From a virus (taxonomy: Duplodnaviria > Caudoviricetes), in IMG/VR virus record IMGVR_UViG_3300017700_000649, positions 1 through 59,753 of that record: a DNA stretch of 59,753 nt. One strand, given 5' to 3'. This document shows positions 8,601 to 38,122 of this stretch, piece after piece (position 1 is the first letter of the stretch; every line of letters starts with the position of its first letter). The position numbers and the translations under genes are program-made. The notes beneath the pieces were generated by a model. That model was given only the letters and a program-made list of their open reading frames with translations, did no database searches and was not told where the DNA came from.

Positions 8601-11600
8601 CAACACTGTCGCCAAACCAGCGCTCAAACTCCGGTGAGTCAGTTTTCAGCGGCGCATCCGTGATCCGCCCCATGGCCGCTGCACTCTCAGGGTTCTCCAT
8701 CTGCGCAATGCCGAAGGCCAGGTCCACCAGGTCCTGCGTCTTGAACGTTTCAGGACGGCCGGTCACCTTGCCCCAGGCCTGCTGCATGGCGTACTTCACG
8801 GAGCCCAGCCAGCGCGCGACGGTGCCATTCTTGGCGATCAGCGACGGCTTGACGCCCATCTTGATTGCGGCCTCCACGGCGTAGGGGAACATCTCCTGGC
8901 TGGACAGCTCGGTGCCCACGGCTTCGACGCGGCTACGGGCATAGGTGTAGACGGCTCGCTCGTCGCTGCCCTCTTCCGCATTGGCCCAGCCGTTGATGGT
9001 GGTGTGCAGCTTGTCCCAGCCTTCGGCGCCAAGCACGGTCTGGCCGTGTTTGTGCATGAGCTCGTGCGCGGCCACGGCCTGTTCATCGCCGGCCGGAATG
9101 TGGTCGGCGATCAGGAAGACGGTCTTGGTGCGGGGGTCGTAGAACGCCTGGGCGGCGCCGGCCTTCTCGTCAGCTGAGAGCTGCACGTTCAGACCGATCT
9201 GGGGTTCCCAGTAGGACTTGATCTCGCTGGCGGTGGTGGCCACCACGCGTCCCAGCTTGTTGGGCAACTGTTTGCCACCGATGAGTTCGGCGACGGCGGC
9301 CTGGACGCGCTCTACTGTGCTGGGGTTGCGGACTTGTCGGCCAGCGCTTCTTTGTGCAGGCGCTCCATCAGGTCCAGATCGTCCGCTTCCTGCTCCGGCG
9401 TCCGTGGCCGCGCGTGACTCTTGCGGTTGTCCTCGCGTTCCTGGAGTACTTTTTCGGGTGTCATATGCGTTCCTGAATTGTTGGGGCGAAAGGTTCGCCT
9501 CCATGAAGTCCTCGGACCGTGGAAACGACGCGCCCATCTTATCCCAGAAGCCCGTTGCCGTGGGCAGGATGTCATGGATGTGCAGCTTCGCGCCGGCTGG
9601 CAAGCTCTCGACAATGCCGCCCACCACCTTCTCGGCGATGGCGTTGCCGCGCTTGCTCTGGTAAATCTCGATGTTGCGCAGGGATTTGAAGACGCCGGCC
9701 GCATCCACGTCCAGAGTGACGATGCCCACGCTGGCTTCGTCCCTGGCTTCCGCCGGGGTGGCGCCGTCGGCCATGGCTTCAGCGTACAGCTTGCGGTCGC
9801 GGATTTCGTAGTCGATGCGCTTCACGTCGCCGCCCGGCTGCCGCACGTTCAGGCGCGGGTCGGCCAGGGCTATTTCCGGAGTTTTGAATGCCGTGGCGCC
9901 GGACTTGGTTTTGAAGGCTTCCAGGGCGGGCACCGGGCCTGGCGTGGCTGCCCGGCTGAACTGAATGTTCGGGTTGGCGCCGTCAAAGTCGCCGTTGTTT
10001 CCAGTCGCTGATTTGATCTGCTCGGGGTCGAAGGCGATGTACACACGGTGCCGCGGTCCGTCCTTCTTCACCCGATTTCCGCCCATGTGGGTGATGCCGT
10101 CAAAGCCCATGGTGCGCAGACCGTCCTGCATGATTTCAGCGCCCTCGTAACTCGGCATGTCTTGGTCGGCCAGCATGTTCTCGGCCGCGCGATACCACGC
10201 TTCATTGGTGTCGCCGCCTTCGTGGTACTGCTCGATGTCATCAAACTGCTTTTCCCAGGCAGCCACGTCGGCCTTGGCTTCCATGTCGATGGGGTTCTTG
10301 ATCGACAGGAAGACTTTGTACACGCTGGGCGACTCGCCGCGCCCCTTGGCGGTGTAGCTGCTGGCCACAGCCGGGTCGGCAGTGAAGTAGCCACCCATGC
10401 CCATCAGGCCATAGTTGGAAGCGTAGGTGTCAAAGACCTTGAACGCGTCGCCGTCCTCGCTGGCGCTGGTGCCGTGGTACATGGGCAGCGGCTTGCCGCC
10501 GAGTTTCCCTGTGTTCGTGACGACACTGTCGCCGAACCATTTCTTGAAGGCCGGGGTGTCGGTTTGAGCGCCCTTTGCCGGATAAGCGGCCTGCACTTCT
10601 TCCGGTGTCAGCGTGCCGGCCTTCACGTCCTTGAGCACATCCAGGCGCTCCTTCCCGGTCACGCCGGCGGCGTCCAGCGCTTCGGTCGCTTGCGCGGCGC
10701 GGCTGAACATCGGCTTCTGGTTGGGGTCGGCGTCGGCGGCGCGCTCGCTGCCGGTCAATGTGAACTCGTTGACCTCGGCGTCGGCCTTGGCTTTGTTGTC
10801 AGCGGCAGCCGTGGCCTTGGCTTCGGCCTTGGTGCCGTCGGCGGCGCGCTGCTGCTGGGCCAGCACATCGGCTGGCGTGGGGGATGTCAGCCCTTCGGCG
10901 TCATCCCGCGGCGCTGCATTTCCTTCTTCACCACGGCTTTGCGCTGCGGTTTTGGCAGTTTCATCAGTTCGGCCACGGCTTTCGCTACCTTGGCCCTGGC
11001 TTTGGGATTGGCTGGCAGTGGCATCTTGAATCTCCTGGTCGGTGAACCCGAGCGCGCGCATGGCGTCCTCGGTGCTGGTGTTGCTGGGTGTATCGGAGCC
11101 GGGGATGTCGGCGTCAAGGGCTTCCAGAACATCGTCTGGCAGCTGCCGCGCGAACTCCTCGGCGGCATCCATGCGGGCCTGCATCTCGTCTTCCGCCACA
11201 CCTGCGGCGTACTGGGGGATTATCCGCTTGCCACGCAAGGCGTCAAGGATGAGGGCATGCAGCTTGGTTTCGTCGGCCTCGAGCAGGAAACCCTCCTCCA
11301 CCGCGCGCTGCGCCAGCGCGTCCAACTGGGGGCCGGACTTGCGGAACATCGGGCCGTAGCCCTGCACCATGGCCGCCTGGCGCTCTTTGCGGCCGGGCGC
11401 GAACTCGTTGGCCAGGCTGTTGCTGATGCCGTGCTTACCCAGGAATGCCTTGAAGGGATTTGCCTCGTTGGCGCGGGTGCGCGCGGCGTTGCCCGGTACC
11501 TTGCGCGCCTTCTCGCTGGCGGCAAAATCGGCGCGTTGGGCAGCAGCATCAGTCGCTATCGAAACAGTAGCAGCCTGGGCAGGCAGTGATTGGGCCGGCG

Positions 11601-14130
11601 CCTGATTTGATGCGCCAAATATCCGGGCCTTTTTGCCCAGCGCGCCGGAGTCAAGCAGCGCCTTGCGGATCTGGTCATCGCTGGCGCCGGCGGGCACGGT
11701 GACGTCGTCGCCGGTCTCGAAGTTCTGGGCGGCGTACTTGCCGACATAGACCACACCGTCTTTAACGGTCACGGGCTCTGCGCTGTTGGGCATCATGCCG
11801 ACCGACAGACCTTCCGGCGCTTTGGCGCTCTCGGCGCGCGCGGCTTTGCGTTCGACGCGCTTGGCCTCGATACGGGCTTTCTCGGCTTCAATGGCTACCT
11901 GGCGGGCGCTGGGCTGGGGCGCGGCCGCCGTGGTGCCGGCGGCCTGCTCGGCACTTGGGAACTCCCGCACGGCCTCCAGCAGCTGTTTGATTGGAGCGTC
12001 CAGGCGGATGACCTTGACCGGTTCGCCGGCCTCCAGTTTTGCCATCCACTGGTGGTGGCCGTCCAGGACGTGGTTGTCGCTGGAAACGAGGATGGACCGG
12101 TCAGTACCGGTGAAACCCATGGCCTTGGCCACCTTCGCCGGGGAGAACTCGGTCTGGGTCGGCTTCAGGCTGGCTGCCGGTACTTCTTCCTGGGTGTGCG
12201 CAATGTCGCGCGCGTTCAGGAAATTGACCATGGCACCTCTGTGCTCGGCCTTGATCTGCGGCATTTCGGCGCGCGGCACGCTCAAGGTACCGGTGTCTGG
12301 CGCGAAAGCCGTCCAGTCCTTGTCAAGGCGCTCTCCAACTACCCCAGCGGCTTGTACTCCACCGGCTCCGGCCGTGGTTCCGGTTGCGGCTGGCTGGACT
12401 CCAGCATCCGCTCGAGCTTCTGGCGTTTCTGCTGGCGTGGCTTGGGTTTGGGCTGTGGCTCGTGGTGCTGCGTCTTGGACATTGGTGGTCGCCGGAATAA
12501 TTTCTGGAATATTTTGCGCAGCGTTTTTTCGTTGCGAGAGGGGGACAAGACGCTGGTCTAGTGCTCCCGTGGCGGGCTCGGCGCGCACAGTTTCCAGAAG
12601 TGCACCAGGGCCTGCGGGCTGACTTGCATCTCCTGCAGGAGCTCCCGCTGGAACTTGGTCAGGCGCGGCGGGCGCAACGGCTTCGGCTTGGGTTGGCGTC
12701 TGGATGACATTGGCGCTCTCCGGTTCGGCGACTTGCGCTATGTTTTCTATAGCTAATGACGCAGGCACCGTCTGGGCTACAGGCTGGTTTTGCTTCAGGA
12801 TTTCGGCGATGTTGTCCACAGCCGTGCTGGACTGCACTGCGGACTGGGCGGCCACAATCGCCTGGTCGACGGTCGGGGCGTTGACGATGTCAGCAATGGG
12901 GTCGACACGCGGCGCGGCGGCAGGGGCCGCACCTGCTGGCGCCCGCCCGCGCATGGCGTCGCGTGCCTCTTTGGAAAACGCAGCAACTTCCATCGGCGCG
13001 CCGCCAAGTTCGCCCGCGGCCTCCATCAGGACCTGGCCGGGCTGGTCGATTTCGCCTTTGGTGGCCAGCTGGCCCAGCGCCTCGCCGCCGGCGCCCAGCG
13101 ACGCCTGAGTGGCCATCTGGGTCGGCAAGTTGACTGCCTGGCGAGCGATCTTGCTTTTCATGGCCGGGGCAATGGTCTTGCCGGCCACGCCGCCGCTGAC
13201 CGCGTCCAGCGTACCGATGATGCCCGCGCGCTTGCCGGCGTAGGCCATGGCTGCAGACAGGTTTTCTGGGTTGGTGAAGAACGCCTCAACGGCCTTGCCG
13301 TTGGTGACGTCGACACCGGCATCGCGCGCGAACTCCGCGAGCGAGCTTCCGCCCTCCACCGCGGCGCTGCTGGCACCCATGGCTACTGCACCGGCGCCAG
13401 GGCCCATCACAGCCGCCGCCGCAAGCGCGGGCAGTGTGGACGGCAGGGATGTCGCGGTCACACCGGCGATCACGTCATACGGCGCTTCCTTGAAGGCTTC
13501 CCAGGCTTCGCCGAACGTCTTGGCGGCGTTGACCTTGGCGACCGCCGGCCGGGTGCTCAGGGCCGCGCCGCGCTGGGCGTCGCCTTGGGCTTCGGTCATT
13601 TCGCCAATGACGGCGGGGAATTTTTCCTTGTAGCTGGCGATCTCGTCGCGCATCAAGCGCGCGGTGCGGCTGTTGCCCTCTCCGCGTGCCTCCAATTCCG
13701 CCAGTCGCTTGCTGGTCTTGTCCAGCCCGCTGGCCACCATGCCCATGTTCACGGTTTTGACGGAGGCACGTGTGTTGTCCACACCGGTGAAGAACGAATC
13801 GCGCAGGTTGGCCAGCTCATCGGCCACGGCGCCGCCTTTGGCAACTGGCACGTCCTCGACTTCGGTGGTGCCGATCTGGGCGCCGGACACGGGGTCATAG
13901 ACGGGCTCGGTGCGGGTCGCCGTGGACGCTGCTGGTGCGCCTGCGGGTTTTGCGTCCACCTGCAGTTTTGGCGTGCTCCTGCTGGCCGATAGATGCCCGA
14001 CGATCTCCGCAGGCGTGTATCCGGCCTTCGCGGCACCGGCCACGTCAAAGCCTGATTCCTTGCCCAGGAAGTCGGCAATCTCGCCGTCGCTGTACCCAGC
14101 CTTGCGCGCGCCTTCGATGTCAAATGCCAT
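5677..14130 (-). CDS. Large polyvalent protein, probably virion-injected (ParB-like, two ART-like, GNAT-like, zincin HExxH and LPD38-like C-terminal domains)
   Basis: 2817 aa; ILVSSDNHVLDGHH; YHGT..GYFT..ASSY..VYKVFL; YHGA..WFA..AATYA..AYL; RNIEI..KRGNAIA; AHELMHKHG; last gene of the late operon. Confidence 0.9.
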   Translation of the reverse strand: MAFDIEGARKAGYSDGEIADFLGKESGFDVAGAAKAGYTPAEIVGHLSASRSTPKLQVDAKPAGAPAASTATRTEPVYDPVSGAQIGTTEVEDVPVAKGGAVADELANLRDSFFTGVDNTRASVKTVNMGMVASGLDKTSKRLAELEARGEGNSRTARLMRDEIASYKEKFPAVIGEMTEAQGDAQRGAALSTRPAVAKVNAAKTFGEAWEAFKEAPYDVIAGVTATSLPSTLPALAAAAVMGPGAGAVAMGASSAAVEGGSSLAEFARDAGVDVTNGKAVEAFFTNPENLSAAMAYAGKRAGIIGTLDAVSGGVAGKTIAPAMKSKIARQAVNLPTQMATQASLGAGGEALGQLATKGEIDQPGQVLMEAAGELGGAPMEVAAFSKEARDAMRGRAPAGAAPAAAPRVDPIADIVNAPTVDQAIVAAQSAVQSSTAVDNIAEILKQNQPVAQTVPASLAIENIAQVAEPESANVIQTPTQAEAVAPAAPDQVPAGAPAGDASQPAGPGALLETVRAEPATGALDQRLVPLSQRKNAAQNIPEIIPATTNVQDAAPRATAQTQATPAETPEARADAGVQPAATGTTAGAGGVQAAGVVGERLDKDWTAFAPDTGTLSVPRAEMPQIKAEHRGAMVNFLNARDIAHTQEEVPAASLKPTQTEFSPAKVAKAMGFTGTDRSILVSSDNHVLDGHHQWMAKLEAGEPVKVIRLDAPIKQLLEAVREFPSAEQAAGTTAAAPQPSARQVAIEAEKARIEAKRVERKAARAESAKAPEGLSVGMMPNSAEPVTVKDGVVYVGKYAAQNFETGDDVTVPAGASDDQIRKALLDSGALGKKARIFGASNQAPAQSLPAQAATVSIATDAAAQRADFAASEKARKVPGNAARTRANEANPFKAFLGKHGISNSLANEFAPGRKERQAAMVQGYGPMFRKSGPQLDALAQRAVEEGFLLEADETKLHALILDALRGKRIIPQYAAGVAEDEMQARMDAAEEFARQLPDDVLEALDADIPGSDTPSNTSTEDAMRALGFTDQEIQDATASQSQSQGQGSESRGRTDETAKTAAQSRGEEGNAAPRDDAEGLTSPTPADVLAQQQRAADGTKAEAKATAAADNKAKADAEVNEFTLTGSERAADADPNQKPMFSRAAQATEALDAAGVTGKERLDVLKDVKAGTLTPEEVQAAYPAKGAQTDTPAFKKWFGDSVVTNTGKLGGKPLPMYHGTSASEDGDAFKVFDTYASNYGLMGMGGYFTADPAVASSYTAKGRGESPSVYKVFLSIKNPIDMEAKADVAAWEKQFDDIEQYHEGGDTNEAWYRAAENMLADQDMPSYEGAEIMQDGLRTMGFDGITHMGGNRVKKDGPRHRVYIAFDPEQIKSATGNNGDFDGANPNIQFSRAATPGPVPALEAFKTKSGATAFKTPEIALADPRLNVRQPGGDVKRIDYEIRDRKLYAEAMADGATPAEARDEASVGIVTLDVDAAGVFKSLRNIEIYQSKRGNAIAEKVVGGIVESLPAGAKLHIHDILPTATGFWDKMGASFPRSEDFMEANLSPQQFRNAYDTRKSTPGTRGQPQESRAATDAGAGSGRSGPDGAPAQRSAGRQVRNPSTVERVQAAVAELIGGKQLPNKLGRVVATTASEIKSYWEPQIGLNVQLSADEKAGAAQAFYDPRTKTVFLIADHIPAGDEQAVAAHELMHKHGQTVLGAEGWDKLHTTINGWANAEEGSDERAVYTYARSRVEAVGTELSSQEMFPYAVEAAIKMGVKPSLIAKNGTVARWLGSVKYAMQQAWGKVTGRPETFKTQDLVDLAFGIAQMENPESAAAMGRITDAPLKTDSPEFERWFGDSVATVDGKAGSEPLVVYHGAPDARFVTEDGTFKSLKARYGAEDPDGGAHWFAGSKRTAATYADDRRAFDYQNAEPGVIAAYLKLENPLIVDGGGKHWREAQKIGKTGRIIEEAKAGGHDGIIVRNVKDDYNNVAGGSRATDTYVVFRSNQIKSATENTTFDPANPDIRFSRAPAPGAKLSPWRDATGRLQFAPGAWLYDKIGAAAGPTLVKLGLKAASPELRRQLRQMKIDVEKAQETAGAIAKETMKLSEAERAMVSDLVEQELKVGIIPPAHAVKLAAMINDAMGRQTDELVALDMLTKDSADKWRGKYLPRYYESKLSAKVGDAWADAMKRLTGRQSVMKGIKGKNLKGRGLYETIPEAELANYEALGWEVRDPDYTPSLPSVDGTVQVWRDFSPEEREKMGEIRDAGFRFVMGYMQTGRDIAVGRMFERMAADPEQSSRLEKEGYVQVPTTTVSGTGAKVYGKLAGRWVPTETMSQLSNIEESTSAAWQMYRQAMAIWKMGKTSMNPVSHVNNMVSNLTMAHLAGVSYHRGDKYLAAARDFIKKPAMMVEAKENGLFLGTLSDTELMNTLPEELKILAQKQESKGEKVARTGFDIMTMFLRKPMGAAYQAEDTFFRYLIYKYAREHGMEPQDAVDYAQKYIFTYDDLPKGARRIRDFGIPFFSYTYKAAPALLHTALTHPVRMAAPAAVLWGINAAAYAIATGDDDDSWQETLKRYLTDPEFRAKAREKEKLEREHLPPWNKGTTSMMTPKMIRLGMDEITKLPLFIDVSRIIPGGDLFDVSPNAGGVPLPQPITPSHPLFTTMVAMLGNKDMFLGKEITDSNDTTGEKASKRSAWLWKQLTPAITAGNYHWERGMNALAQANGGEVKWVPDVLGGDATGIGKDGNPVQPKYAAMQTFGIKVRPVDLETAEAIEGSMKRKMIRDIDGEIKKLQRLASKGAISDRTLEKERDKAIQKKENLRNGLTVDGSEKD
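9312..9464 (-). CDS. Nested +1-frame 50-aa ORF (C) in the polyvalent gene
   Basis: AGGA-6nt-ATG; MTPEKVLQEREDNRKSHARPRTPEQEADDLDLMERLHKEALADKSATPAQ; GC-ending codons in the nested frame. Confidence 0.65.
   Translation of the reverse strand: MTPEKVLQEREDNRKSHARPRTPEQEADDLDLMERLHKEALADKSATPAQ
10887..11024 (-). CDS. Nested +1-frame 45-aa basic ORF (B) in the polyvalent gene
   Basis: AGGAG-7nt-ATG; MPLPANPKARAKVAKAVAELMKLPKPQRKAVVKKEMQRRGMTPKG; codon bias inverted relative to the main frame. Confidence 0.7.
   Translation of the reverse strand: MPLPANPKARAKVAKAVAELMKLPKPQRKAVVKKEMQRRGMTPKG
11555..11612 (+). repeat. 58-bp dispersed element, copy 1
   Basis: GCTAT-CGAAACA-GTAGC-N19-TGGGCC-GGCGCCTGATTT. 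Confidence 0.65.
12339..12548 (-). CDS. Nested +1-frame ORF (A2), start TTG 12548 or ATG 12482
   Basis: Same frame as ORF A and three codons after its TAG; host-like codons; no clear RBS. Confidence 0.4.
   Translation of the reverse strand: MSPSRNEKTLRKIFQKLFRRPPMSKTQHHEPQPKPKPRQQKRQKLERMLESSQPQPEPRPEPVEYKPLG
12558..12710 (-). CDS. Nested +1-frame 50-aa ORF (A) in the polyvalent gene (absent from the ORF track)
   Basis: GGAG-7nt-ATG; MSSRRQPKPKPLRPPRLTKFQRELLQEMQVSPQALVHFWKLCAPSPPREH; CTG ACC AAG TTC CAG run in the nested frame. Confidence 0.65.
   Translation of the reverse strand: MSSRRQPKPKPLRPPRLTKFQRELLQEMQVSPQALVHFWKLCAPSPPREH
12737..12794 (+). repeat. 58-bp dispersed element, copy 2
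   Basis: GCTAT-GTTTTCT-ATAGC-N19-TGGGCT-ACAGGCTGGTTT. Confidence 0.75.
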
Positions 14131-14136
14131 GGTGGC

Positions 14137-15141
14137 TCACTTTGTTTGGAAGCTGGACAGGGGTGGACGGGCGCCGGGTTTGGCGCCGGGGGTTGCGGTC
14201 GGTGCACCTGGCTTCTCCGGCGCACCGCGGTCGGTAAGGCTGGAGTCCAGCGCGGCGGCGGCGCGGTCACGCACACGCACCGCGGTTTCGTAGGACCGCT
14301 GCCAGTCGGCTTGAGCTTCAGGCGTTTTGCCCTTGCCACCTTCGTTCAGGTTCTTGATGGTGGCGTTCATGGCGTTGACGATAGCACCCAGCTTGTCAGG
14401 ACTGCCGGGTTTGCCGCCGCCCTCTTCCTTGGCGGTGTCGCTACGGTCCCAGTGTTCGATCAGCGCGTCAATGCGGCGGTTCTGGGCATCCAGGCTACCC
14501 TGCTGCAGGTCCAGGCGGCGCAGGTCGATTTCAGCCTTGCGAGCGTCGGCCTGGGCTTTGCGGTCGGATTCCTTGGCGCTGTTGGCGGCCGCGGCATCGC
14601 TCTTCTTCTCGCTGACATCGATGCGGCGTTCGTCGCGCAGCGGCTTGCCCACCCGGGCCTCGTAGTCGGCATAGGCAGGCAGGTCGTTGACCTTGGCGTC
14701 GCTCACCGCAGCTTCCAGCGCTTCGTCGGCGGTGCGCTTGCGCGTCTTGCCGGCCACGTTGATCAACCCCTTCTTCGTGTCGCCCGCCACCTGCTTGTCC
14801 AGCTGGGCCATGGCCTCTTGTCGCTGCACGGGGTCGGCAATGGTCTCGATGGCCTTGCGCTGCGTGGCAATGTCGCCTTCGAAACCGAACTTCTCGCCCG
14901 CGTCATCGGTGCCAGACACGCGCGTCACGGGCGCGGCCTCCAGCGGAACCTCCTCGTTCATCTTTGCCTGGGCGCCAGCGGAAATGCGCTTGAGCCCGGA
15001 GTTCTTCAGTTCTTCCAGGCGCGCGTCGCGCTCGGCCTGAATCTGGGCAGCCAAGTCCTGCTGGTAGCCCTTGGCGTACATGTCGCCGCCGGCATAGCCA
15101 GCAGCAGAAGCGCCTTGGCGCAGGCCGTCGATGAGCCCCAT
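14137..15141 (-). CDS. Putative internal virion/ejection protein
   Basis: Helical Ala/Lys/Asp-rich; MGLI N-terminus; precedes the giant protein. Confidence 0.7.
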   Translation of the reverse strand: MGLIDGLRQGASAAGYAGGDMYAKGYQQDLAAQIQAERDARLEELKNSGLKRISAGAQAKMNEEVPLEAAPVTRVSGTDDAGEKFGFEGDIATQRKAIETIADPVQRQEAMAQLDKQVAGDTKKGLINVAGKTRKRTADEALEAAVSDAKVNDLPAYADYEARVGKPLRDERRIDVSEKKSDAAAANSAKESDRKAQADARKAEIDLRRLDLQQGSLDAQNRRIDALIEHWDRSDTAKEEGGGKPGSPDKLGAIVNAMNATIKNLNEGGKGKTPEAQADWQRSYETAVRVRDRAAAALDSSLTDRGAPEKPGAPTATPGAKPGARPPLSSFQTK

Positions 15142-15142
15142 A

Positions 15143-15625
15143 TCAGCCTCCCTGTGCTTGTTGTTTGAACGCCGCCAGCTTCTGCGGGTCGTTCATCACG
15201 GCCTGGGTTTTACCCATGATCGCCTGCATCTTGTCCGGCGTCAGCCCGATCTTTGGCAGCAGGGTTTCGAGGTAGGTGCGCGTGGCGGTCGAAAGCATTT
15301 CCGGCGTCACCTCGATCATGCCGCCTTGCTCCATGAAGTCCAGGGCTTCCATCAGCAGAGACTGGCCGGCAAAGATCATGGGGCCCACCGGCATGGTGTT
15401 TTTGCTTTCCTTGAACAGGATGCCGATGATGCCGATGATGCCCTCGACGGCGGTCTTCATCGGGTCGTCGGCTTCCATCAGGCCCTTGAGCAGCTCGCCG
15501 TGCGTCTCTTTCGAGAACATCACCTTCATCCCGGCCAGCACGATGCGGTCATACGCCTGCTTGTCGGCCGGCGGCACTTTGGCGTCGATGGCGGCTTCCG
15601 CCTTCTTGATCATTTCGTTGTTCAT
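15143..15625 (-). CDS. Hypothetical protein in the ejection module
   Basis: Tightly packed ORF with good codon usage. Confidence 0.75.
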   Translation of the reverse strand: MNNEMIKKAEAAIDAKVPPADKQAYDRIVLAGMKVMFSKETHGELLKGLMEADDPMKTAVEGIIGIIGILFKESKNTMPVGPMIFAGQSLLMEALDFMEQGGMIEVTPEMLSTATRTYLETLLPKIGLTPDKMQAIMGKTQAVMNDPQKLAAFKQQAQGG

Positions 15626-15626
15626 A

Positions 15627-16508: not shown

Positions 16509-16882
16509 GGTGGCTCCTTCATTCTTAAATGGTCAATTCGGTACAGGATGTTTTCTTCGTCTTCACCGACTCGGTAAAAGCCCAGGCGCTCGTTGAATCG
16601 CTGTTGCCGGGTTTCGGACTTCGGTGTCCTGGTGGTGGCGTACCCGTACTGGGCGATCAGCTCACCCGGGTATTTCTTCAGGTGCGCGCGGCTGGCCTGG
16701 ATGTCGGTGCCGAACTTTTGAAAGTGAAACTCGGGGCCGCGGGAGATAAAGACGATTCCAATGCTTCCGTCGGCGCGTAAGACCGGCTCGATGTCCCAGC
16801 CGTCAAGGGTTTTGCCGAACTGCTCGCGCGTCAGGTACAGCGGGGTATCAGCGAACAGCAGGTCTATGCACTGCTCTCTCAT
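16496..16882 (-). CDS. GNAT-like podophage protein
   Basis: RFNERLGFYRVGE acetyltransferase-like C-terminal motif. Confidence 0.7.
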   Translation of the reverse strand: MREQCIDLLFADTPLYLTREQFGKTLDGWDIEPVLRADGSIGIVFISRGPEFHFQKFGTDIQASRAHLKKYPGELIAQYGYATTRTPKSETRQQRFNERLGFYRVGEDEENILYRIDHLRMKEPPCQL

Positions 16883-17715: not shown

Positions 17716-17728
17716 GGAGTTTCCTGGT

Positions 17729-28060: not shown

Positions 28061-28086
28061 AAAAAACTCCAAAGTTGGGTTTGGGG

Positions 28087-29079: not shown

Positions 29080-29325
29080 TTAATCGATGTCTGGCGTCAG
29101 GTCTGGCAGGTCTTCCGCCAGAGCAAGTAGCGCTTTCAGCTCTGCGATGCGTCCGCGCAGTAGAGCGGTTTTGCTCTCCGGCTGGTCGGCATCGTTCTGC
29201 TTTCGCAGTGTGAGAATTCGGTTTTCCACGTGCTTGGCCAGCTTCAGCCAAAGTGCGCTCTGGCGATCTGCGGTGGAAAGGACTGGCTCAACGCTGTCCG
29301 GGCCTTTTGGTGAGCCGCGCTTCAT
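29080..29325 (-). CDS. Small helical protein after the portal (Bbp19-like)
   Basis: LRKQND..TALLRGRIAELKALL. Confidence 0.7.
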   Translation of the reverse strand: MKRGSPKGPDSVEPVLSTADRQSALWLKLAKHVENRILTLRKQNDADQPESKTALLRGRIAELKALLALAEDLPDLTPDID

Positions 29326-31724: not shown

Positions 31725-31727
31725 TTG

Positions 31728-31973
31728 TTAAGCAGCCAAGCCGACCAGGGCGGTGGCCGTGGTTCCCGTGGCGTTCACGCGATTGACCTCAACCGGCAAG
31801 ATGCTGCCCACCGGGACTGCGGTGAACAGAACGACTGTGCCGTCCATCATGACGGCCGTGATGTTGCCGGCCCCGCCCACGTAGATGCCGCGGGCGGTGG
31901 CCTGGAGGTTCACGGTGTCGCTCGGCGTGATCGGGAACGCATAGCGGGCAACGGGGTTGGGTACAAATTGCAT
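31728..31973 (-). CDS. Head spike base protein-like (RcGTA Rcc01079 family)
   Basis: AFPITPSD..RGIYVGGAGN..GSILPV..RVNATGTTATALVGL. Confidence 0.8.
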   Translation of the reverse strand: MQFVPNPVARYAFPITPSDTVNLQATARGIYVGGAGNITAVMMDGTVVLFTAVPVGSILPVEVNRVNATGTTATALVGLAA

Positions 31974-31988
31974 GGTGAATCCTTTGGG

Positions 31989-33455
31989 TTACAGGCCCAT
32001 GCCTGCGTCAGACGGCTGGAAGGGTGCCAGGCGGTCTTGGGTTTCTGGGACTTGAACTGCCGCTTTGCGCAGCATCATCAGGGCGTAGCGCGTGGCGCTC
32101 ATCAGGTCATCACCGACCTTCACGATCTTTCCGTCATCGCGGTGGTAGAGACGGAACTCTTCCCACCACTCGTGCAGGTGCGCGGCGACCTTCAGGCGGC
32201 CGGTCTGCATGCGGTCCAGCATGTCCATCAGCCCGGCCTCGACGCCATTGCCGCCGGTTCCTTCGGGCTTACCCTTCTCCGGCGGGTGCGTCGCCTTGTC
32301 CTTGAGCATCTTCACGCCCAGGTTGCGGTATTGCGTGGCCAGCTGCTCGCCTGAGCCTTTGTCGTGTTGCAGGCCGTCATGCGGCCATGCGAATGGAATC
32401 CACTTTCCCTTGGCCGTCATGGCTGCCGCGTGAATGACGGGGGTTGCTTCGCGCTTGCGGTAGCAGTCGTAAACGTGCACGGTGTCGGTGTCACGGTCGT
32501 AGGCTATCCACACCGCCGCGGTTGGGTGATCCCATCCAAAGTCCACGCCGCCGATGCGCGGCCAGTGCCTGGGCAAAGACAGCACCGGCTCCCTGACGTC
32601 CTCTTCTGGGATCGGGAAGATGCGGCCAGAGCCCAGCGTCGGGATGCCCATGGAGCGTGCTTCGCGCTCGTGCGCCGGGTAACTGGCGATGATGGCGGCC
32701 CGTTGCGCTGGCGTGTAGTGCTCGGCGTCGTGGATCGTCATCGTGGTCACCGCGGTGCCTGGATGCTTGTCAATCAGGAAGCGTTTAACGACGTCCGACA
32801 TGCCCTTCAGCGGCGTGAACGTCACCCAGACGATGCCCTGCGTGGCGTTTGTCCGGGTCAGGCCCTCGATGTAAATGTCTTCCGGCGGCTCCTCGTCGAA
32901 CCAGACGAAGTCCAGGGTCTCGCCCTGCCAACGCTCGCGGCCCTGGTCGTATGTCTTTAGTGTCACCCGGCTTACTCCGCCGGTCTCGTGGCGCACCAGG
33001 ATGGTTTCCACGGCGTCCGCTACACCGTGCGATGCCCTCTGAATCTTCAGAATCCTGTCGGCTGGGATGGCTCCAGTGCCCCACGCACCTACCGGCCCCA
33101 GCAGCAGCCGCTGAACCGTGTCCCGCGTTCCCTGGCTGGTCTCAGATGCCGCCCAACCAGTCACTGGCTCGTTGAATACCGCGCCCTCCCAGTCCTCTGG
33201 GTAGAGGCCAGTAAGGTGCATGGCGCACTCGAACGAACCTGCAACCGTCTTGCCCAGCTGGTTGCCGGCGATTAAAAGGCGCTCGCGCACCGTGAAGTCA
33301 GCGCCCAGCGTGTGGAATTCGATCTGCTTGGCGTACGGCTGGTAATCGGCCAGTTTGAACCTGGCGAGCTCGTTGATGGCCTCCGCCAGCAACGCGGCGC
33401 TCTCACCTGGCAGGAGTTGATCCAGCCAATCGAGGTCGTCAGCGAGCTTTGGCAC
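31989..33455 (-). CDS. terL: Terminase large subunit
   Basis: Walker A AGNQLGKT, Walker B VWFDEEP, nuclease motifs DFGWDHP and DDLMSA. Confidence 0.95.
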   Translation of the reverse strand: MPKLADDLDWLDQLLPGESAALLAEAINELARFKLADYQPYAKQIEFHTLGADFTVRERLLIAGNQLGKTVAGSFECAMHLTGLYPEDWEGAVFNEPVTGWAASETSQGTRDTVQRLLLGPVGAWGTGAIPADRILKIQRASHGVADAVETILVRHETGGVSRVTLKTYDQGRERWQGETLDFVWFDEEPPEDIYIEGLTRTNATQGIVWVTFTPLKGMSDVVKRFLIDKHPGTAVTTMTIHDAEHYTPAQRAAIIASYPAHEREARSMGIPTLGSGRIFPIPEEDVREPVLSLPRHWPRIGGVDFGWDHPTAAVWIAYDRDTDTVHVYDCYRKREATPVIHAAAMTAKGKWIPFAWPHDGLQHDKGSGEQLATQYRNLGVKMLKDKATHPPEKGKPEGTGGNGVEAGLMDMLDRMQTGRLKVAAHLHEWWEEFRLYHRDDGKIVKVGDDLMSATRYALMMLRKAAVQVPETQDRLAPFQPSDAGMGL

Positions 33456-34260
33456 TGAGCCTCTCCACGACAGCCTTCAGTTTTTCCCTGTCGATACCGT
33501 CCAGCAGGCTCTTCTGCTTGTTGTCCTTCTCGTACAGACCCAGGTGTTTGGCCACCTTTTCCAGGGCCTCGCCCTTGTTGTGCGTCAGCACCTGCAGGCC
33601 GTCTTTCGTTTCCTTGACGCCGGCATAGAGCGCCGCAGCGCCCTTGCTCAGCTTGCGCGTGTCCTTGAATATGGTGCGGCCCACGCCTTCACCGAAGCAT
33701 TCAGGGCAGTCCGGGTTTGGCGTCCTGCGCTTGTCGTACCCGATACCGCCCTTGGCGTCGAACTCGGCACCGATGGGGTTTCCGTCTTCGATGGCCTTTT
33801 CAGCCCTGGCGCTGTACTCCGCTTCCTCGCGCTCTTGCTCAGCCGCCGTGCGCTGGTAGCGGTTGTCCTTGCCCCAGCAGTACCGGCAGCAGCCGATGAC
33901 ATGCTCCACAAGCTCCCGGGCATCCGCCGTTGCGATGCCCCAGATATGTTGCAGTGCGTCTTCGGCGGTGATGCTCAACGTCTTTGAGCGCTCCTGCTTT
34001 GCGGCTGCGATGGCATCAACCAAGTTAGCGTCCGCTAGCAATCTGCACGCCGCCACGCGGGCGGTGCCGTTCGTCACGTGCGGGAAAACCCTCAAGTAAG
34101 CCTGCGTGCCGTTCAGGTCGATCAGGTATTCCTCGACGAAGCGCTCTTCGTTGGGCGTCAGCATGTGCGGTCCACTGCGCTGGGTCAGGACCGGCTTGGA
34201 CTTGCGCACGGCGCTCGCTGCCGGCGTCTTCTTCGCTGGCTTGGCAGGTGTCTTGCCCAT
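33439..34260 (-). CDS. terS: Terminase small subunit with zinc-binding insertion
   Basis: LTPNEERFVEEYLIDLNGTQAY; CCRYCWG..CPECFGEG; ALEKVAKHLGLY. Confidence 0.9.
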   Translation of the reverse strand: MGKTPAKPAKKTPAASAVRKSKPVLTQRSGPHMLTPNEERFVEEYLIDLNGTQAYLRVFPHVTNGTARVAACRLLADANLVDAIAAAKQERSKTLSITAEDALQHIWGIATADARELVEHVIGCCRYCWGKDNRYQRTAAEQEREEAEYSARAEKAIEDGNPIGAEFDAKGGIGYDKRRTPNPDCPECFGEGVGRTIFKDTRKLSKGAAALYAGVKETKDGLQVLTHNKGEALEKVAKHLGLYEKDNKQKSLLDGIDREKLKAVVERLSAKAR

Positions 34261-34463
34261 CACAGGCCCTTCAGGTAGCTCAGGATTAGCCGGTCGAGCA
34301 CGCGCAGCGACTTCGCGGCGTTTTGGCGTGCCAATTCGATCTGGTCTTCGGGGAAGACTTTGGCGTCCTTCATGCGGTGCACGATCAGGTTGTTCGCCTG
34401 GCACACCGTGGCCATCGTCCCAATGCAGTTATTGAAGACGGCTGGCGGGTGCATGGCGATCAT
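34260..34463 (-). CDS. Hypothetical protein
   Basis: Packed ORF overlapping the terS start. Confidence 0.6.
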   Translation of the reverse strand: MIAMHPPAVFNNCIGTMATVCQANNLIVHRMKDAKVFPEDQIELARQNAAKSLRVLDRLILSYLKGL

Positions 34464-34470
34464 TCGGTGG

Positions 34471-34746
34471 TCAGTCCCTGACCAGGCGCAGGCCGTTGGG
34501 ACCGTCGAGCTGCAGGCCCTGGGGCTGCGCTTCTGCGGTGGCCGCCATCTCCGCGGACGGCACAAAGGCTCCCTCAACCCACTGCACGGCTTCCGTGGTC
34601 TTCATGCCGGCGATGCTGTCCAGGTACTTCAGCACCAGGTTAGCGTGCTGGTGGGCGTGGCTGTCTTTGTTGAAGCCGCCTTCCAGGAACAGGCTCATGC
34701 TGATCTGGCCGTCGACGTCGTCCAGGGTGATAACTGCTTTTGGCAT
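34471..34746 (-). CDS. Hypothetical protein
   Basis: Coupled to the upstream gene. Confidence 0.7.
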   Translation of the reverse strand: MPKAVITLDDVDGQISMSLFLEGGFNKDSHAHQHANLVLKYLDSIAGMKTTEAVQWVEGAFVPSAEMAATAEAQPQGLQLDGPNGLRLVRD

Positions 34747-35130
34747 TTACTTGCCCTTCCCGGCTTTGGCTGGGGCTTTCTTGGCCGCCGGCTTCTTGCC
34801 GGTGAGTTTTTCCACCACGCGCTTGGCCAGGCTGGGCTTTGCGGCCTTCACCGGCTTTGCGGCTGGCGCTGCTGGCGCTGCTGGCGCCGGCTCTACGGGC
34901 GCGTTGGCTTCCTGTTTCAAGGCTTCGGCTTGCTCCGGGGTTTCCACCGGAACGGGCTCGATCGGGACTTCGCCGGCAGGCGTGGGCTCTGGCAACTGGC
35001 CCAGGCAGGCATGGCCTTCCCAGTCAGCGTCGTCATCCCGGCTGGCCAGGAAGTCAGCGATCTGCTGCTTGTTGTGGAAGTTTTTTTCTTCGCCGGTCAC
35101 GGCGTTTCGCAGGGGAATCAGGAATTGCAT
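34747..35130 (-). CDS. Hypothetical protein with Lys/Ala/Pro-rich tail
   Basis: AAGGA RBS; histone-like C-terminus. Confidence 0.7.
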   Translation of the reverse strand: MQFLIPLRNAVTGEEKNFHNKQQIADFLASRDDDADWEGHACLGQLPEPTPAGEVPIEPVPVETPEQAEALKQEANAPVEPAPAAPAAPAAKPVKAAKPSLAKRVVEKLTGKKPAAKKAPAKAGKGK

Positions 35131-35138
35131 GGCAGTCC

Positions 35139-35477
35139 TTACATGTCCGCGGGCATGCCGGGTTTGGCTCCCATTGCGGCTGGCTTCGCGCCGAAGCCTT
35201 CGTCGAATTCGTTGTCCGCCTTGTCGCTGCCTTCCCTCTCCAGGATGTCAATCACCAGCTTCAAAGCGTCGCCGATGTTGTCGGCCGTCATTTCCTGTCC
35301 GGGCTCTTCACCGGGCATAGGGGCAGGCTCAGGCTTCATTTCCTTGGCCACCTTGAAGGTGCCGTCGGGCCGAACGTAGATTTCGATGCAGTAACCGCCC
35401 TGCTCGGGTGCGGCGCCCATAGCGGGATCTGCACCGGGTGCCATGGCGCCAGGGGCTGGAGGGGTCATTGGGGGCAT
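35139..35477 (-). CDS. First late-operon hypothetical protein
   Basis: Pro/Met/acidic; host-like codon usage. Confidence 0.7.
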   Translation of the reverse strand: MPPMTPPAPGAMAPGADPAMGAAPEQGGYCIEIYVRPDGTFKVAKEMKPEPAPMPGEEPGQEMTADNIGDALKLVIDILEREGSDKADNEFDEGFGAKPAAMGAKPGMPADM

Positions 35478-35748
35478 GGCAGGCTTTCAGGTGGGAAATA
35501 AAAACCCCGCTGGGCGAAACCATGCGGGCGTAAAAGGTGGCAACTGCGGGTTGTTCACCTTGGAGACGATCTGTTCGGTTGGGCGGCGGGCCCCGGGACG
35601 TCCCTGGTGGAGGGGAGCTGGTGCCCGGGGCCGTTTCGCTGGCTGCGGTTAACTCACCGCTGCTCGAGCCAGTCCGACGCCAAGAACCAGTGCTTGGGAA
35701 GCTGGCAGGCGTTTGAGTGGGCTGGTAGCCCGGCGTGGCCGGGGGTTC

Positions 35749-35824
35749 TGGCGGGCCTGGAAGGACTTGAACCTTCAGCCTTCGGTTTTGGAGACCGGTG
35801 CTCTGCCAGTTGAGCTACAGACAC
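35749..35824 (-). tRNA. tRNA-Trp(CCA), 76 nt with encoded CCA and two stem mismatches
   Basis: GTGTCTG TA GCTC AACTGGCA GAGC A CCGGT CT CCA AA ACCGA AGGCT GAAGG TTCAAGT CCTTC CAGGCCC G CCA. Confidence 0.9.
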
Positions 35825-35832
35825 GAAAAATT

Positions 35833-35958
35833 GATGGCGACCGGGCTACCTTCACTTTTCGTGATTGAGCGCGATCTCTAAAGCTGGGCGGGCCATGCTG
35901 TCGTCACTGCTTCCGGGCCGGGTGCTATCCGGCCAGATCCAGTCATGCGGTTGCCATC
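35833..35958. ncRNA. Candidate structured RNA in the late leader
   Basis: 11-bp closing stem GATGGCGACCG/CGGTTGCCATC with nested helices. Confidence 0.5.
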
Positions 35959-35965
35959 GGAAACG

Positions 35966-35991
35966 AAAAAGCCACCTCGGTGGGTGGCTTT
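35966..35991 (-). terminator. tR'-like terminator after the late promoter
   Basis: AAAGCCACC-CACCGA-GGTGGCTTTTT on the minus strand. Confidence 0.8.
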
Positions 35992-36084
35992 GGAAATCTG
36001 TGGGGGTGGCTTCGCCATCGAAGTGGCGGGACCTTTTGATCTTATCGGGTCGGTAAATGCCGACTCGTGTGTACAGGTGGCGGG

Positions 36085-36114
36085 ATTATAAGGCCGGTTT
36101 TACAACCTGCGCAA
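36085..36114 (-). promoter_or_regulatory. pR'-like late promoter
   Basis: TTGCGC-N18-TATAAT downstream of the Q-like gene and about 90 nt before a terminator. Confidence 0.7.
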
Positions 36115-36262
36115 CAACATTCTGATTTTCGAGTACTTCTCTCGCCCGTTCCTCGCTGACTGACGCCCATCCTGTAAACCATGGGTCTTCGTTTGGATCT
36201 ACCCCAGGAGGCAAGAACACCACGTATCCCATTCGCTCCCACCACTGGCCCGGCAGTTTCAT
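36086..36262 (-). CDS. 58-aa hypothetical protein coupled to Q (absent from the ORF track)
   Basis: ATGA overlap with the Q stop; MKLPGQWWERMGYVVFLPP..VVKPAL. Confidence 0.5.
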   Translation of the reverse strand: MKLPGQWWERMGYVVFLPPGVDPNEDPWFTGWASVSEERAREVLENQNVVAQVVKPAL

Positions 36263-36849
36263 GACATTTCCATGCCAGCCGACAACGCTTTCATCGCCGC
36301 CGGCCCCGCGCGCCCTGCTTCCCGTTCCATTTCCGCAACAAGCCAGTCAGCCAGTTCCCGGTGCTCTTGCTTGAACTGCGACTTGAAGGCCACCTTTCCC
36401 GTGCCGCGGCAAACTTGGCAATCGTGGTCGCTGAAGGACTTGCTGCCCGGGATCAGCGTTTTGCCGTGGCCACCACACGCCCGGCACGTTCCGTTGCGAT
36501 GCCACGCCAAGCACGCGCAGGCCATGTCGTGTGCCGTGACGCGGCCGATCTTCACGCGCAGCTTCCATGACTGGGTGAACACCAGTTCAGCCAGGATGCG
36601 GACGATGTCGTGCGCCGCCCGGTTGTCGCCGGCGAACATACGCTCGAGTGGCACAGCCAGCGGGTGCTTGCTGCAATCCTCGCCGCGCTCGTTCTTCCCC
36701 GAACTTAGGCGCTTGTCGGCTATGCCCATGGCGCCCAGGATGTCCGTGTCGCCAGACTGCCCCTGCTCTTCCCGCTTGTTCAGCTCGCTGGTGTGCTTCA
36801 GGTTGCTGCTGTGCACGGCTGTCGCGTATCGGTCGGTGATCCTGGCCAT
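36259..36849 (-). CDS. Late antiterminator, Q-like
   Basis: CRACGGHG..CQVCRGTG zinc finger; lies before the late promoter. Confidence 0.75.
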   Translation of the reverse strand: MARITDRYATAVHSSNLKHTSELNKREEQGQSGDTDILGAMGIADKRLSSGKNERGEDCSKHPLAVPLERMFAGDNRAAHDIVRILAELVFTQSWKLRVKIGRVTAHDMACACLAWHRNGTCRACGGHGKTLIPGSKSFSDHDCQVCRGTGKVAFKSQFKQEHRELADWLVAEMEREAGRAGPAAMKALSAGMEMS

Positions 36850-36870
36850 AGTGTTCTTTCTTTGTTATCT

Positions 36871-36928
36871 GCTATCAAATTAGTAGCTACTGAGGCGCGT
36901 ATCTATTGGGCTGCCGGCATTTTTTGCT
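36871..36928 (+). repeat. 58-bp dispersed element, copy 3
   Basis: GCTAT-CAAATTA-GTAGC-N19-TGGGCT-GCCGGCATTTTT. Confidence 0.75.
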
Positions 36929-37595
36929 GTGTTTTCACCATCACTTCGTAGGCATCGGTCAGCCAGCCGATCGCGTGGTGCCCGTCGGCCTTGTCGGCGA
37001 AGCTGGTGCTGGGGTCGTTCTTCACCGCATGGATGAGTTCGGGTGTGAGTTGCAGCGGCATCTCAACCATTACCGGCGATCCCGTTGCCGGTTGCCAGGT
37101 TTTAGGGTCTGGCGTGCATGTCTCCGAGGACTCGCGCGAACCACGGGCAGCGATGGCGACTTCCGGCGTCTCGCTTATGCCAGCGCGCACGCGGCGCGTG
37201 TATTGACGCTTCTCTCGTGGCGGGTCCGTCTCTGGCTCTACGTCCACCGCATTGGCGTGATAGTCGACAGGCTCAGACGAGGGTGTTGGCGCTGGTGGCG
37301 ATGCGGCAGCCGGCTCCGACAGCAACGCCACGCCAGGAACCAATTTGTCCAGCCTGAACGCCTTCTTGTCGCCCATGCGCCAGGTCACTTCCAGTTCATT
37401 GTTCCGCATCTTCATCAGGCCGCCCCGCACGACAGCGAGTTGCAAGATGGCGTCCACGCTGTTGATCGGGCAGTTGGCTACCGCCGCGACGTCCTTGCGC
37501 ATCAACACCGCCTCTGGGTGTGCTACCAAAAATGTGAGCACCAGCCAAGGCATGGAGCCGGGCTTGGGGGTATAGAGTTCCACTGTTTCGGTCAT
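36903..37595 (-). CDS. Hypothetical protein, N-terminus winged-helix-like
   Basis: AGGAG RBS; YTPKPGS N-terminus; flanked by repeat copies 3 and 4. Confidence 0.7.
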   Translation of the reverse strand: MTETVELYTPKPGSMPWLVLTFLVAHPEAVLMRKDVAAVANCPINSVDAILQLAVVRGGLMKMRNNELEVTWRMGDKKAFRLDKLVPGVALLSEPAAASPPAPTPSSEPVDYHANAVDVEPETDPPREKRQYTRRVRAGISETPEVAIAARGSRESSETCTPDPKTWQPATGSPVMVEMPLQLTPELIHAVKNDPSTSFADKADGHHAIGWLTDAYEVMVKTQQKMPAAQ

Positions 37596-37597
37596 GT

Positions 37598-38122
37598 TCA
37601 CGCTCCTGAATTGATAGCTGCTTGCCCAATCACTGTCTGGGCTGGAGGCTGATTTGGCTCTGATTCGAGAAGGCACAAAGCCCAATGTGCCGCTTTCCTG
37701 TCGCGCGGCGTGTAGCTCATGTCCCCGACGATTCGGCGCCAGTCAAGAATCTGGCGGCCGTGCGCCACGTGAAACCATTCGCGCTTGACCTCGCGCAGCG
37801 TGGGGCCCTGGTCATAGGCGGTATGGCAGGCGAAACACCCGGCGGCGCTCATGTGGTCGTTTTGCTTGATCGCCATGCCCTTGCCTTCGTTCTGGTGGCA
37901 GGCCACTACCGTGGCGCGGTTGTCCGTGCAGATGCCCGGCAGGCGGAACAGGCAGGGCTTGCCGCGCGCCATGCTCAGGAGGTGCGGGTTGCGGTGTTCC
38001 TCGGGTTTTGGCTGCACCAGCGCCAGCGCATCGCAGCGGCTCACCACGCCCCGGCTTATGGGCTGGGGGTGGCTTACCGGTGGGCGCTGGTACACCGGGC
38101 GCTTGAAGCCGCTGTTTTTCAT
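37598..38122 (-). CDS. DUF1364-like nuclease-domain protein
   Basis: ARGKPCLFRLPGIC..TVVACH..GCFACH. Confidence 0.8.
   Translation of the reverse strand: MKNSGFKRPVYQRPPVSHPQPISRGVVSRCDALALVQPKPEEHRNPHLLSMARGKPCLFRLPGICTDNRATVVACHQNEGKGMAIKQNDHMSAAGCFACHTAYDQGPTLREVKREWFHVAHGRQILDWRRIVGDMSYTPRDRKAAHWALCLLESEPNQPPAQTVIGQAAINSGA
37602..37659 (+). repeat. 58-bp dispersed element, copy 4
   Basis: GCTCC-TGAATTG-ATAGC-N19-TGGGCT-GGAGGCTGATTT. Confidence 0.75.

Follow-up and report, generated by a model that had tools for sequence, protein, structure and literature searches.

Partly decayed copies of a dispersed Comamonadaceae repeat at gene ends and in domain linkers of a temperate phage

Short repeats that recur with fixed spacing around apparent modules of a phage genome raise the question of whether they are instruments of module exchange, sites read by a host protein, or passengers that have settled where they do no harm. 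The tailed-phage genome (Duplodnaviria; Caudoviricetes) held in IMG/VR as IMGVR_UViG_3300017700_000649 poses that question within 59,753 nucleotides (positions 1 to 59,753 of the record, the whole stretch that was analysed and that is termed ‘the window’ below). An initial annotation, made from the letters alone, had noted there a 58-bp element arranged as two direct-repeat pairs, and had suggested that it might be either a cassette-exchange site for a tyrosine recombinase or a binding site for a host nucleoid protein. The four sites are partly decayed copies of a dispersed chromosomal repeat of the Comamonadaceae, approximately 64-70 bp in length. This places a host repeat inside a complete temperate phage, where it is translated within an injected-type polyvalent protein of 2817 amino acids (aa), ends two other genes, and provides both a stop codon and a ribosome-binding site.

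The pattern given by the initial annotation matches the plus strand of the window at positions 11555, 12737, 36871 and 37602 with no mismatches; a fifth match was not found anywhere in the virus record at up to two mismatches, the mean count in 100 dinucleotide shuffles was 0.00, and a reversed-pattern control returned 0. The four copies agree with one another at 30-38 of 58 positions, and when each copy is compared without gaps to every 58-mer of the window, both strands included, its three closest matches are the remaining copies. Pairs at the upper end (36-38 identities) exceed the maximum found in 30 codon-shuffled genomes (31-34), whereas the weakest pairs (30 and 32) do not. A 17-bp dyad, GCTAY-N7-DKAGC, is confined to the four sites in the window (0.43 occurrences expected), and all four copies carry, at fixed distances from one another, a 5' run of A, the triplet GSC and the 3' dyad GCTAY-N7-xxAGC, in the same columns that these features occupy in the alignment of host copies described below. 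The description of the sites as four same-orientation copies with identical spacing and divergent interiors is thus borne out by the pattern scan and by the ungapped comparison, and the copies are genuine repeats.

In the 64-column register of the host alignment, in which the copies are delimited here, copy 1 (11552..11615, minus strand) and copy 2 (12734..12797, minus strand) lie in frame within the polyvalent protein gene, where they encode SNQAPAQSLPAQAATVSIA and QNQPVAQTVPASLAIENIA, respectively; copy 1 is the most decayed of the four, and the 1182 bp given earlier as the distance between the pair (12737 minus 11555) is correct. The 5' half of copy 3 (36868..36931, minus strand) constitutes the last codons and the TAG stop codon (36905-36903) of the gene at 36903-37595, as had been claimed, while its 3' half falls in the 53-bp spacer that precedes an ATG at 36849. 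Copy 4 (37599..37662, minus strand), which is the best preserved, forms the C-terminal tail (PNQPPAQTVIGQAAINSGA, then a stop) of the gene at 37598-38122 and also furnishes the ribosome-binding site of the gene downstream, an AGGAGC located 7 nt before the ATG at 37595, again in agreement with the annotation. All four copies overlap minus-strand coding sequence in one reading frame.

The wider distribution of the element was established with the scan pattern TAGCSC-N14-24-GCAGCTATCAA, which was derived from better-preserved copies in related phages and applied to one genome per species across 185,579 species. At least 123 stretches match, and the spacer is exactly 17 in 109 among the matches listed. 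Most of 80 titles belong to Polaromonas, Acidovorax, Rhodoferax, Giesbergeria, Ottowia, Comamonas, Curvibacter or Simplicispira, or to unclassified metagenome-assembled genomes of the Burkholderiales. Four host genomes contain 261, 160, 255 and 101 matches to the core at up to two mismatches, with 0, 0, 1 and 0 in the corresponding reversed controls. The motif that the initial annotation had suggested to be abundant in Comamonadaceae chromosomes accordingly exists, with the same fixed spacing, and at 101-261 copies per genome (as opposed to 0-1 in the reversed controls) it lies far above background frequency.

When 105 host copies were aligned (four further loci, L122, L140, L194 and L202, were left out as apparent chance matches), they proved to be gapless over 64 columns. 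From 5' to 3' the host element comprises a run of A or T, GGCC, TAGCSC, a variable interior, TGCGC, AGCAGCTATCAA, about five bases and TAGC; TAGCSC and GCAGCTATCAA are invariant by construction in this alignment. The repeat as a whole, at ~64-70 bp, can be described by the rigid anchors A-run, GSC, TAGCSC, N17, GCAGCTATCAA, N5 and TAGC, and it is this combination of rigid anchors with a variable interior that produces the ‘identical spacing, divergent interiors’ seen in the phage. An interior hairpin is present in some host subfamilies only; across the family, 68.7% of cells are paired, compared with 66.9% in shuffles. The host consensus contains no covarying helix (three of eight pairs are changed on both sides, which is not above shuffles, and RNAalifold retains only invariant columns), and the four phage copies fold no better than shuffled sequences (z -0.83 to +0.60). 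The family is defined by sequence and rigid spacing. An RNA family was rejected as a candidate identity: Rfam returns only one tRNA in the window, and nothing at gathering score in 10 host loci.

According to crude gene calls, host copies rarely lie between divergent genes (5-9 of 109), and they display no bias of orientation relative to genes, the sense and antisense counts being 29 and 39 at host loci and 10 and 10 at IMG/VR loci. Variants that resemble a Shine-Dalgarno sequence are not enriched in front of genes (3 of 14, against 19 of 95).

The strength with which each phage copy can be assigned to this family differs considerably. In a search of the window with a profile made solely from the 105 host copies, for which the best match in a reversed database scored 8.2 bits, copy 4 was recovered at full length with 37.2 bits (E=1.7e-9), copy 2 was marginal at 13.4 bits (E=0.047), copy 3 scored through its dyad alone (9.4 bits), and copy 1 gave no match. 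Against the 17 letters of the core, TAGCSC-N17-GCAGCTATCAA, copy 4 has one mismatch, copies 2 and 3 have four each, and copy 1 has six; the spacing is kept in all four, and the interior of copy 3 resembles some host interiors (for example, those of L128 and L130). The four sites thus have the fixed architecture of the Comamonadaceae chromosomal repeat, with copy 4 significant alone, copy 2 marginal, and copies 1 and 3 assigned by way of the others.

A literature search found no published function or mechanism for this repeat, printed accounts of which amount to two motif strings without a name. Tong et al. (2017) list, among ‘potential novel motifs’, ATAGCT(N)22CAAAAG in Polaromonas naphthalenivorans CJ2 and GCTTAT(N)5AAGCG in Acidovorax ebreus TPSY (PMC5217627); to the extent that the available text of that article gives them, both strings are pieces of the host element described here, one from the opposite strand and one from the interior. 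The Polaromonas motif has 125 copies there, 101 of them intergenic, 18 in genes and 34 between convergent genes, a distribution with which crude gene-context calls on the present host copies agree. The text available from PMC5217627 describes neither a function, nor the full ~64-70-bp architecture, nor in-frame copies, and it makes no mention of phages, although no search aimed at that term was made.

Among viral sequences, IMG/VR contains only 49 stretches with the exact core. Beside them lie, among others, a methyltransferase, HNH nucleases, NinB and the terminus of a DarB-like polyvalent gene. A DNA search of GenBank phages gave no match to the region 36200-38200 of the window.

Where the element is translated, a single frame is used. 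The frame xTA/GCx, with the stroke marking the codon boundary, is used by copies 1, 2 and 4, by copy 3 in its translated 5' half, and by every copy that was translated from within an open reading frame (ORF) of a relative (the insertion in the phage record G005, the copies in G007 and L221, the methyltransferase tail in L024 and L225, and the repressor-like tail in L226); it yields a peptide rich in Ala, Gln and Pro. It might be supposed that stop codons force the orientation of the element in genes. That suggestion is refuted by the host copies (n=105), which are open in two sense frames (55 and 53 copies) and also in one antisense frame (73 copies). We take the use of one frame to reflect a filter for harmless peptides.

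Several contigs illustrate the variety of gene ends at which the element is encountered. In L224 (277-310) it lies 15 nt after the end of a DarB-like polyvalent gene; in L225 (1501-1534) it forms the tail of a C5 DNA methyltransferase; and in L226 (1501-1534) it forms the tail of a repressor-like protein (ESEPN...AAIN), which mimics the tail of the nuclease in the window.

Comparison with related phages then allowed the positions of the elements to be set against the points at which homology begins and ends. A search with the large terminase subunit (TerL) produced 80 viral loci, on which a profile of the phage copies was run. The window contains four elements, L005 contains two and a half, L006, L007 and L024 (near-identical to one another) contain two each, and L022 contains one; no element was found by this profile in the other 75 of the 80 loci. 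The closest relative, G005 (the record behind L005, joined from three loci), has a TerL that is 95% identical, is collinear with the window, and contains six element sites.

Exactly at the position of copy 3, G005 carries an extra gene of 105 aa, flanked by a full element and a 3' half-element, and copy 3 of the window is a hybrid of the two, its 5' half aligning to the full element and its 3' half to the half-element; the arrangement anticipated for cassette-like sites, a single element left where a relative has an extra segment, is therefore found at this junction. Within a linker of the polyvalent gene, G005 is a net 69 bp longer than the window, and the extra stretch is one element, in frame, to whose 3' half the host profile gives 28.6 bits. 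Homology with the window ends at position 1478 of L212 (equivalent to 4964 of the window), and another G005 element is situated 11 bp past that point. If the full and half elements at the extra gene are counted as one event, the nearest block boundary is no more than 45 bp away for three of five independent G005 sites, as compared with a random-site probability of 0.07, so that P=0.003 at a distance threshold that was set after the data had been seen.

More distant polyvalent proteins were compared as well. In G007, which is 63% identical in the N-terminal domain, the blastp alignment stops at residue 432 of the window protein, about 12 residues before copy 2, and resumes at residue 933; the segment that carries a ParB-like module is unmatched, and G007 has its own element in an insertion some 30-45 residues before the position of copy 1. 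In L221, a metagenome contig that matches only aa 738-839 of that segment, homology ends at the first codons of copy 1 and, by eye, resumes near residue 1170; L221 likewise carries its own element elsewhere in its polyvalent gene. In four lineages, elements therefore occupy differing linker positions of the polyvalent gene, in the same frame throughout. Viral scans for more polyvalent relatives gave only G005 and G007, to which a metagenome scan added L221 and one weak match; viral scans for the bracketed 230-aa gene (36903-37595) and for the extra gene of L005 in other contexts gave only the same record. The expectation that breakpoints between related phages would fall at the elements holds for several junctions in G005 and L221, both indels and mosaic joints, including the indel of a single element; at many other breakpoints there is no element.

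The element also recurs in front of a particular gene. The 196-aa protein gene of the window (36259..36849, minus strand), which begins at the ATG downstream of copy 3, has homologs in 15 sources, the window included, and an element is situated directly upstream in six of the 15 (the window, L005 with the half-element only, L022, L006, L007 and L024), across proteins of 34-95% identity; eight of 15 have no upstream element, and L018 was left out of both counts. L019 and L021 (47.5% identical) belong to the group without the element, although they are closer to the window than is L022. Given that span of identity, the association of the element with this gene is either old or recurrent, and it is the best argument for a function. 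In a further viral contig, L251, an element lies 20 nt before a 172-aa ORF.

The similarities among copies bear on how they arrived. Copies 2 and 4 match their best host copy at 45 and 48 of 64 positions, respectively, and no copy elsewhere in the two phages (the window and G005) at more than 40 of 64; copy 3 is marginally nearer to a host copy (40, compared with 39), and copy 1 ties at 38. Because copies 2 and 4 are closer to host copies than to phage copies, we infer that separate acquisition from a host-like pool fits better than duplication inside the phage. Orthologous copies in the window and G005 are identical at 43, 42 and 53 of 64 positions (the last being copy 1 and its ortholog), their flanks are 75-88% identical, and the host profile no longer detects copies 3 and 4 of G005; orthologous copies thus look as though they decay at about the rate of the flanks.

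The explanation that we regard as probable is that the elements are host-like passengers, comparable to the repeats of repetitive extragenic palindromic (REP) type and of Rickettsia palindromic element (RPE) type, that lodge at permissive junctions, where they mark and perhaps seed the mosaic joints of the phage. On this account copies would have entered the phage lineage separately from a host-like pool, as discrete units of ~65-70 bp, in the manner of REP and Rickettsia RPE repeats, and would have survived only in harmless places: intergenic spacers, last codons and the linkers between domains. Parts of some copies would subsequently have been co-opted as a stop codon, a C-terminal tail or a ribosome-binding site. 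Since copies common to unrelated genes, to related phages and to the host would offer ~60 bp of shared homology at permissive junctions, insertions, deletions and module replacements would tend to start or finish at the elements, and that tendency would in turn make the elements look like brackets around modules. No specific recombinase would be required.

The phage contains natural examples of repeat DNA turned into protein linkers, and the element is a concrete candidate, open to testing, for the brief stretches of common sequence through which phages swap modules. It could also serve as a sequence marker that links unclassified viral contigs to Comamonadaceae hosts, and the phage itself provides a small and tractable system for asking what reads or spreads a repeat with hundreds of chromosomal sites.

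A number of observations weigh against the passenger explanation. Taken singly, copy 4 alone clearly belongs to the host family; copies 1 and 3 (the dyad of the latter aside) are joined to it through their likeness to copies 2 and 4, the common anchors and the interior of copy 3. Relatives of the phage TerL occur in only two of 401 genomes of the family, at only 54-58% identity, and the phage's own host was not identified directly. In the test of block boundaries, the late choice of threshold is compounded by the nature of one of the three events, which is the element's own indel. Copies 1, 2 and 4 fall, like their orthologs in G005, within conserved blocks rather than at breakpoints; the alignment of the window with G005 has 38 block boundaries, most of them free of any element; and neither a target-site duplication nor a donor copy was identified for any insertion. 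The coincidence with junctions could arise merely because elements and breakpoints both survive at permissive sites. Finally, pure neutrality is difficult to reconcile with an element that directly precedes the 196-aa gene even where the lineages compared have proteins of only 34-45% identity.

Three classes of previously described sequence offer comparisons for the passenger explanation. The REP elements, their composite BIMEs (bacterial interspersed mosaic elements) and the associated RAYT (REP-associated tyrosine transposase) proteins of Enterobacteria and Pseudomonas resemble the present element in that they are short, present in high copy, mostly intergenic, and built as an imperfect palindrome after a TAG-containing tetranucleotide; a Y1_Tnp gene is, moreover, present in four of the four host genomes tested. 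The differences are that the palindrome of the present element is weakly supported, its conservation lying instead in flanking sequence with rigid spacing; that the element is not consistently located beside the Y1_Tnp gene; and that copies are found in frame in genes and in a phage. The stable, co-varying palindrome characteristic of REP sequences is absent from the host alignment, in which pairing is barely above that of shuffles, and the phage copies fold no better than shuffled sequences.

Rickettsia palindromic elements have reportedly been described, by Ogata and colleagues in 2000, as inserting in frame into protein-coding genes. The present element is like them in being a fixed-length, in-frame repeat within ORFs, placed in loops or linkers, and present or absent between close relatives; such a discrete in-frame presence and absence is what the 69-bp indel of G005 displays. 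It differs in clade and sequence and is shorter, it resides in the ORFs of phages, and its copies also double as C-terminal tail, stop codon and ribosome-binding site.

Boundary or linker sequences are found at gene borders in mosaic lambdoid phages and mycobacteriophages, and homeologous recombination is regarded as a source of mosaicism. Here too a short conserved sequence is located at gene borders and mosaic joints of related temperate phages, and breakpoints coincide with it at three of the five G005 sites, though not at copies 1, 2 and 4 when the window is compared with G005. The difference is that the present sequence is a host repeat, with hundreds of copies per host genome, and is also found inside a gene, at the borders between domains.

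A fourth family was considered and rejected as the identity of the element. The Betaproteobacterial repeat element (BRE) of Hot et al. (2011) likewise occurs in Comamonadaceae genomes with some copies inside coding sequences (PMC3110155), according to the portions of that article that are accessible; as characterized there it is 75-91 bp long, averages 69% G+C and is often in tandem. Length, base composition and tandem habit all disagree with the present element, the core strings of which occur in neither of the two supplementary files of PMC3110155 that were searched, and on that partial source BRE is most likely a different family.

A further-reaching reading, which we hold to be doubtful, makes of the repeat a portable cassette for junctions, tolerant of reading frame and put to use by phages. 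A single unit of ~65 bp could act as a protein linker, a C-terminal tail, a stop codon or a ribosome-binding site, and recombination among copies in phages, prophages and the host chromosome could fuse, split, insert or swap genes and domains in frame. Were it true, the cassette would give physical form to the ‘linker’ that the modular theory of phage evolution has long assumed, and would offer a route by which giant polyvalent proteins are built from separate genes.

One alternative to the passenger explanation, which we consider rather unlikely, is that the copies are functional sites read by a host DNA-binding protein (for example, one associated with the nucleoid) that organises, insulates or regulates phage DNA, such as the DNA in front of the 196-aa gene. 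That host copies conserve sequence and not structure (68.7% versus 66.9% pairing) is in its favour, and the upstream element in six of 15 sources of the 196-aa gene, across proteins of 34-95% identity, points in the same direction; the eight sources without it, including L019 and L021, and the loss of core positions from the orthologous copies of G005 argue the other way. Nor was a promoter-like site found in 34300-39500, or a terminator-like site on the coding strand at the elements.

A specific form of this proposal is a site for integration host factor (IHF), the consensus for which is WATCAA-N4-TTR. The first part, WATCAA, does occur in the host alignment, where it is invariant by construction, whereas at the position of TTR the host consensus has ATA and is variable; with only half of the consensus present, an IHF site was rejected. 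A promoter was rejected on a count of 0 sigma-70-like sites in 34300-39500, and a terminator for want of any such site on the coding strand where the elements lie.

It is improbable, in our judgement, that the element is a site for site-specific or single-strand recombination, whether acted on by a tyrosine recombinase at the GCTAY-N7-RTAGC dyad or by a RAYT-like Y1 transposase at a palindrome flanked by TAGC, so as to move cassettes. In favour of such an activity are the single hybrid element of the window, at a place where L005 instead holds a further gene flanked by one full and one half element, and an element-sized, in-frame indel; the hybrid junction is, however, equally well explained by homologous recombination between two copies. 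The core of a tyrosine-recombinase site (of the dif, lox or att type) consists of two inverted arms of ~9-13 bp around a spacer of 6-8 bp. The initial annotation had seen a resemblance to such a core around the 7-bp spacer, a proposal that is not supported: the arms are 3-5 bp in the four copies, the right arm varies in host copies, and no recombinase gene is near. When 53 ORFs of the window were scanned against Pfam and PHROGs, the sole recombinase was the integrase at 2664-3998, at least 7.5 kb from every copy.

As for a Y1 transposase, an orthologous Y1_Tnp (PF01797) protein is encoded in all four host genomes, and many host copies show GTAGC or CTAGC before an imperfect palindrome; the phage copies, on the other hand, do not fold, and an element adjoins the Y1_Tnp gene (within ~100 bp upstream) in one of the four hosts, lies 2.5 kb away in one more, and is absent within 3 kb in the other two. 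The protein itself, which is IS200-like and of RAYT type, is ~240 aa in length, single, and conserved in the four genomes G001-G004 (L273-L276).

The remaining alternative, that the peptide itself (approximately N-Q-P-x-A-Q-T/S-V/L ... A-A/I-I/T-x-x-x-A) is conserved as a linker, cleavage site or packaging tag of the polyvalent protein and of two small proteins, is very improbable, and a peptide motif is largely refuted: all four copies do share one frame and similar peptides, and several third codon positions vary while residues are kept, but identity by codon position (0.63, 0.61 and 0.55) shows no clear third-position relaxation, the similarity of copy 3 continues for 11 codons past the stop, copies before the 196-aa gene in relatives are intergenic and carry stops, the same ‘peptide’ ends an unrelated methyltransferase, a repressor-like protein and a nuclease, and the DNA motif is mainly intergenic in hosts (101 of 125 copies in the accessible text of PMC5217627).

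The genome in which the copies reside is that of a temperate phage. The virus record is complete, with direct terminal repeats and 62% G+C, and almost all genes from 5.7 to 49 kb lie on the minus strand. An early region of lambdoid type (a Cro-like protein, DnaB, RusA, NinB and a YbcO-like nuclease, by Pfam and PHROGs) is accompanied by small and large terminase subunits, an SU10-type portal and adaptor, and lysis genes.

The polyvalent protein gene (5677..14130, minus strand; 2817 aa), which has orthologs or relatives in G005, G007 and L221, encodes two ART-PolyVal domains, with copies 1 and 2 situated in linkers between domains. The segment between those copies (11616..12733, minus strand) consists of a low-complexity linker, a putative module of ParB-like character and, at aa 738-839, a block that is conserved. 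The ParB-like domain that the initial annotation placed there has no ParB match in Pfam (E<=0.1) or among PDB sequences; what persists of that claim, as a lead only, is its resemblance in a language-model atlas, in which it falls near phage clusters that are 57% ParBc_2 or 14% ParB_N (score 0.91). The ParB-like segment (11896-12408, minus strand) is covered by PHROG families 11358 and 2859, both of unknown function. A peptide, AVDNI-x-x-IL, is encoded just before copy 2 (window 12795-12840, minus strand) and again just after the element in L221 (8451-8490, plus strand); it could belong to a more extended linker unit that is repeated, or could have been left behind when sequence was rearranged at the elements.

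At the other pair of copies, the gene whose last ~20 codons are element sequence (37598..38122, minus strand; 174 aa) encodes the YbcO-like or HNH nuclease, and is followed by the 230-aa gene bracketed by copies 4 and 3 (36903..37595, minus strand), which has no family match and a homolog of 238 aa in G005. The product of the 196-aa gene contains two zinc motifs resembling CxxCxGxG; its match to DnaJ_CXXCXGXG, at E=0.022, is below the cut-off, and it belongs to no Pfam or PHROG family. The gene is located between nin-like genes and the tRNA and terminase genes, the place of the late antiterminator Q in lambdoid phages. A tRNA-Trp gene (35749-35824, minus strand; anticodon CCA) lies between it and the small terminase gene; because this tRNA is not a suppressor, translation presumably does end at the TAG of copy 3. 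Finally, between the polyvalent gene and the integrase there is a fragment of an EamA-like membrane protein (4583-4948, minus strand; Pfam E=5.8e-6, below the cut-off), which is probably a moron at a mosaic joint, because the DNA of G005 is unrelated from that point on.

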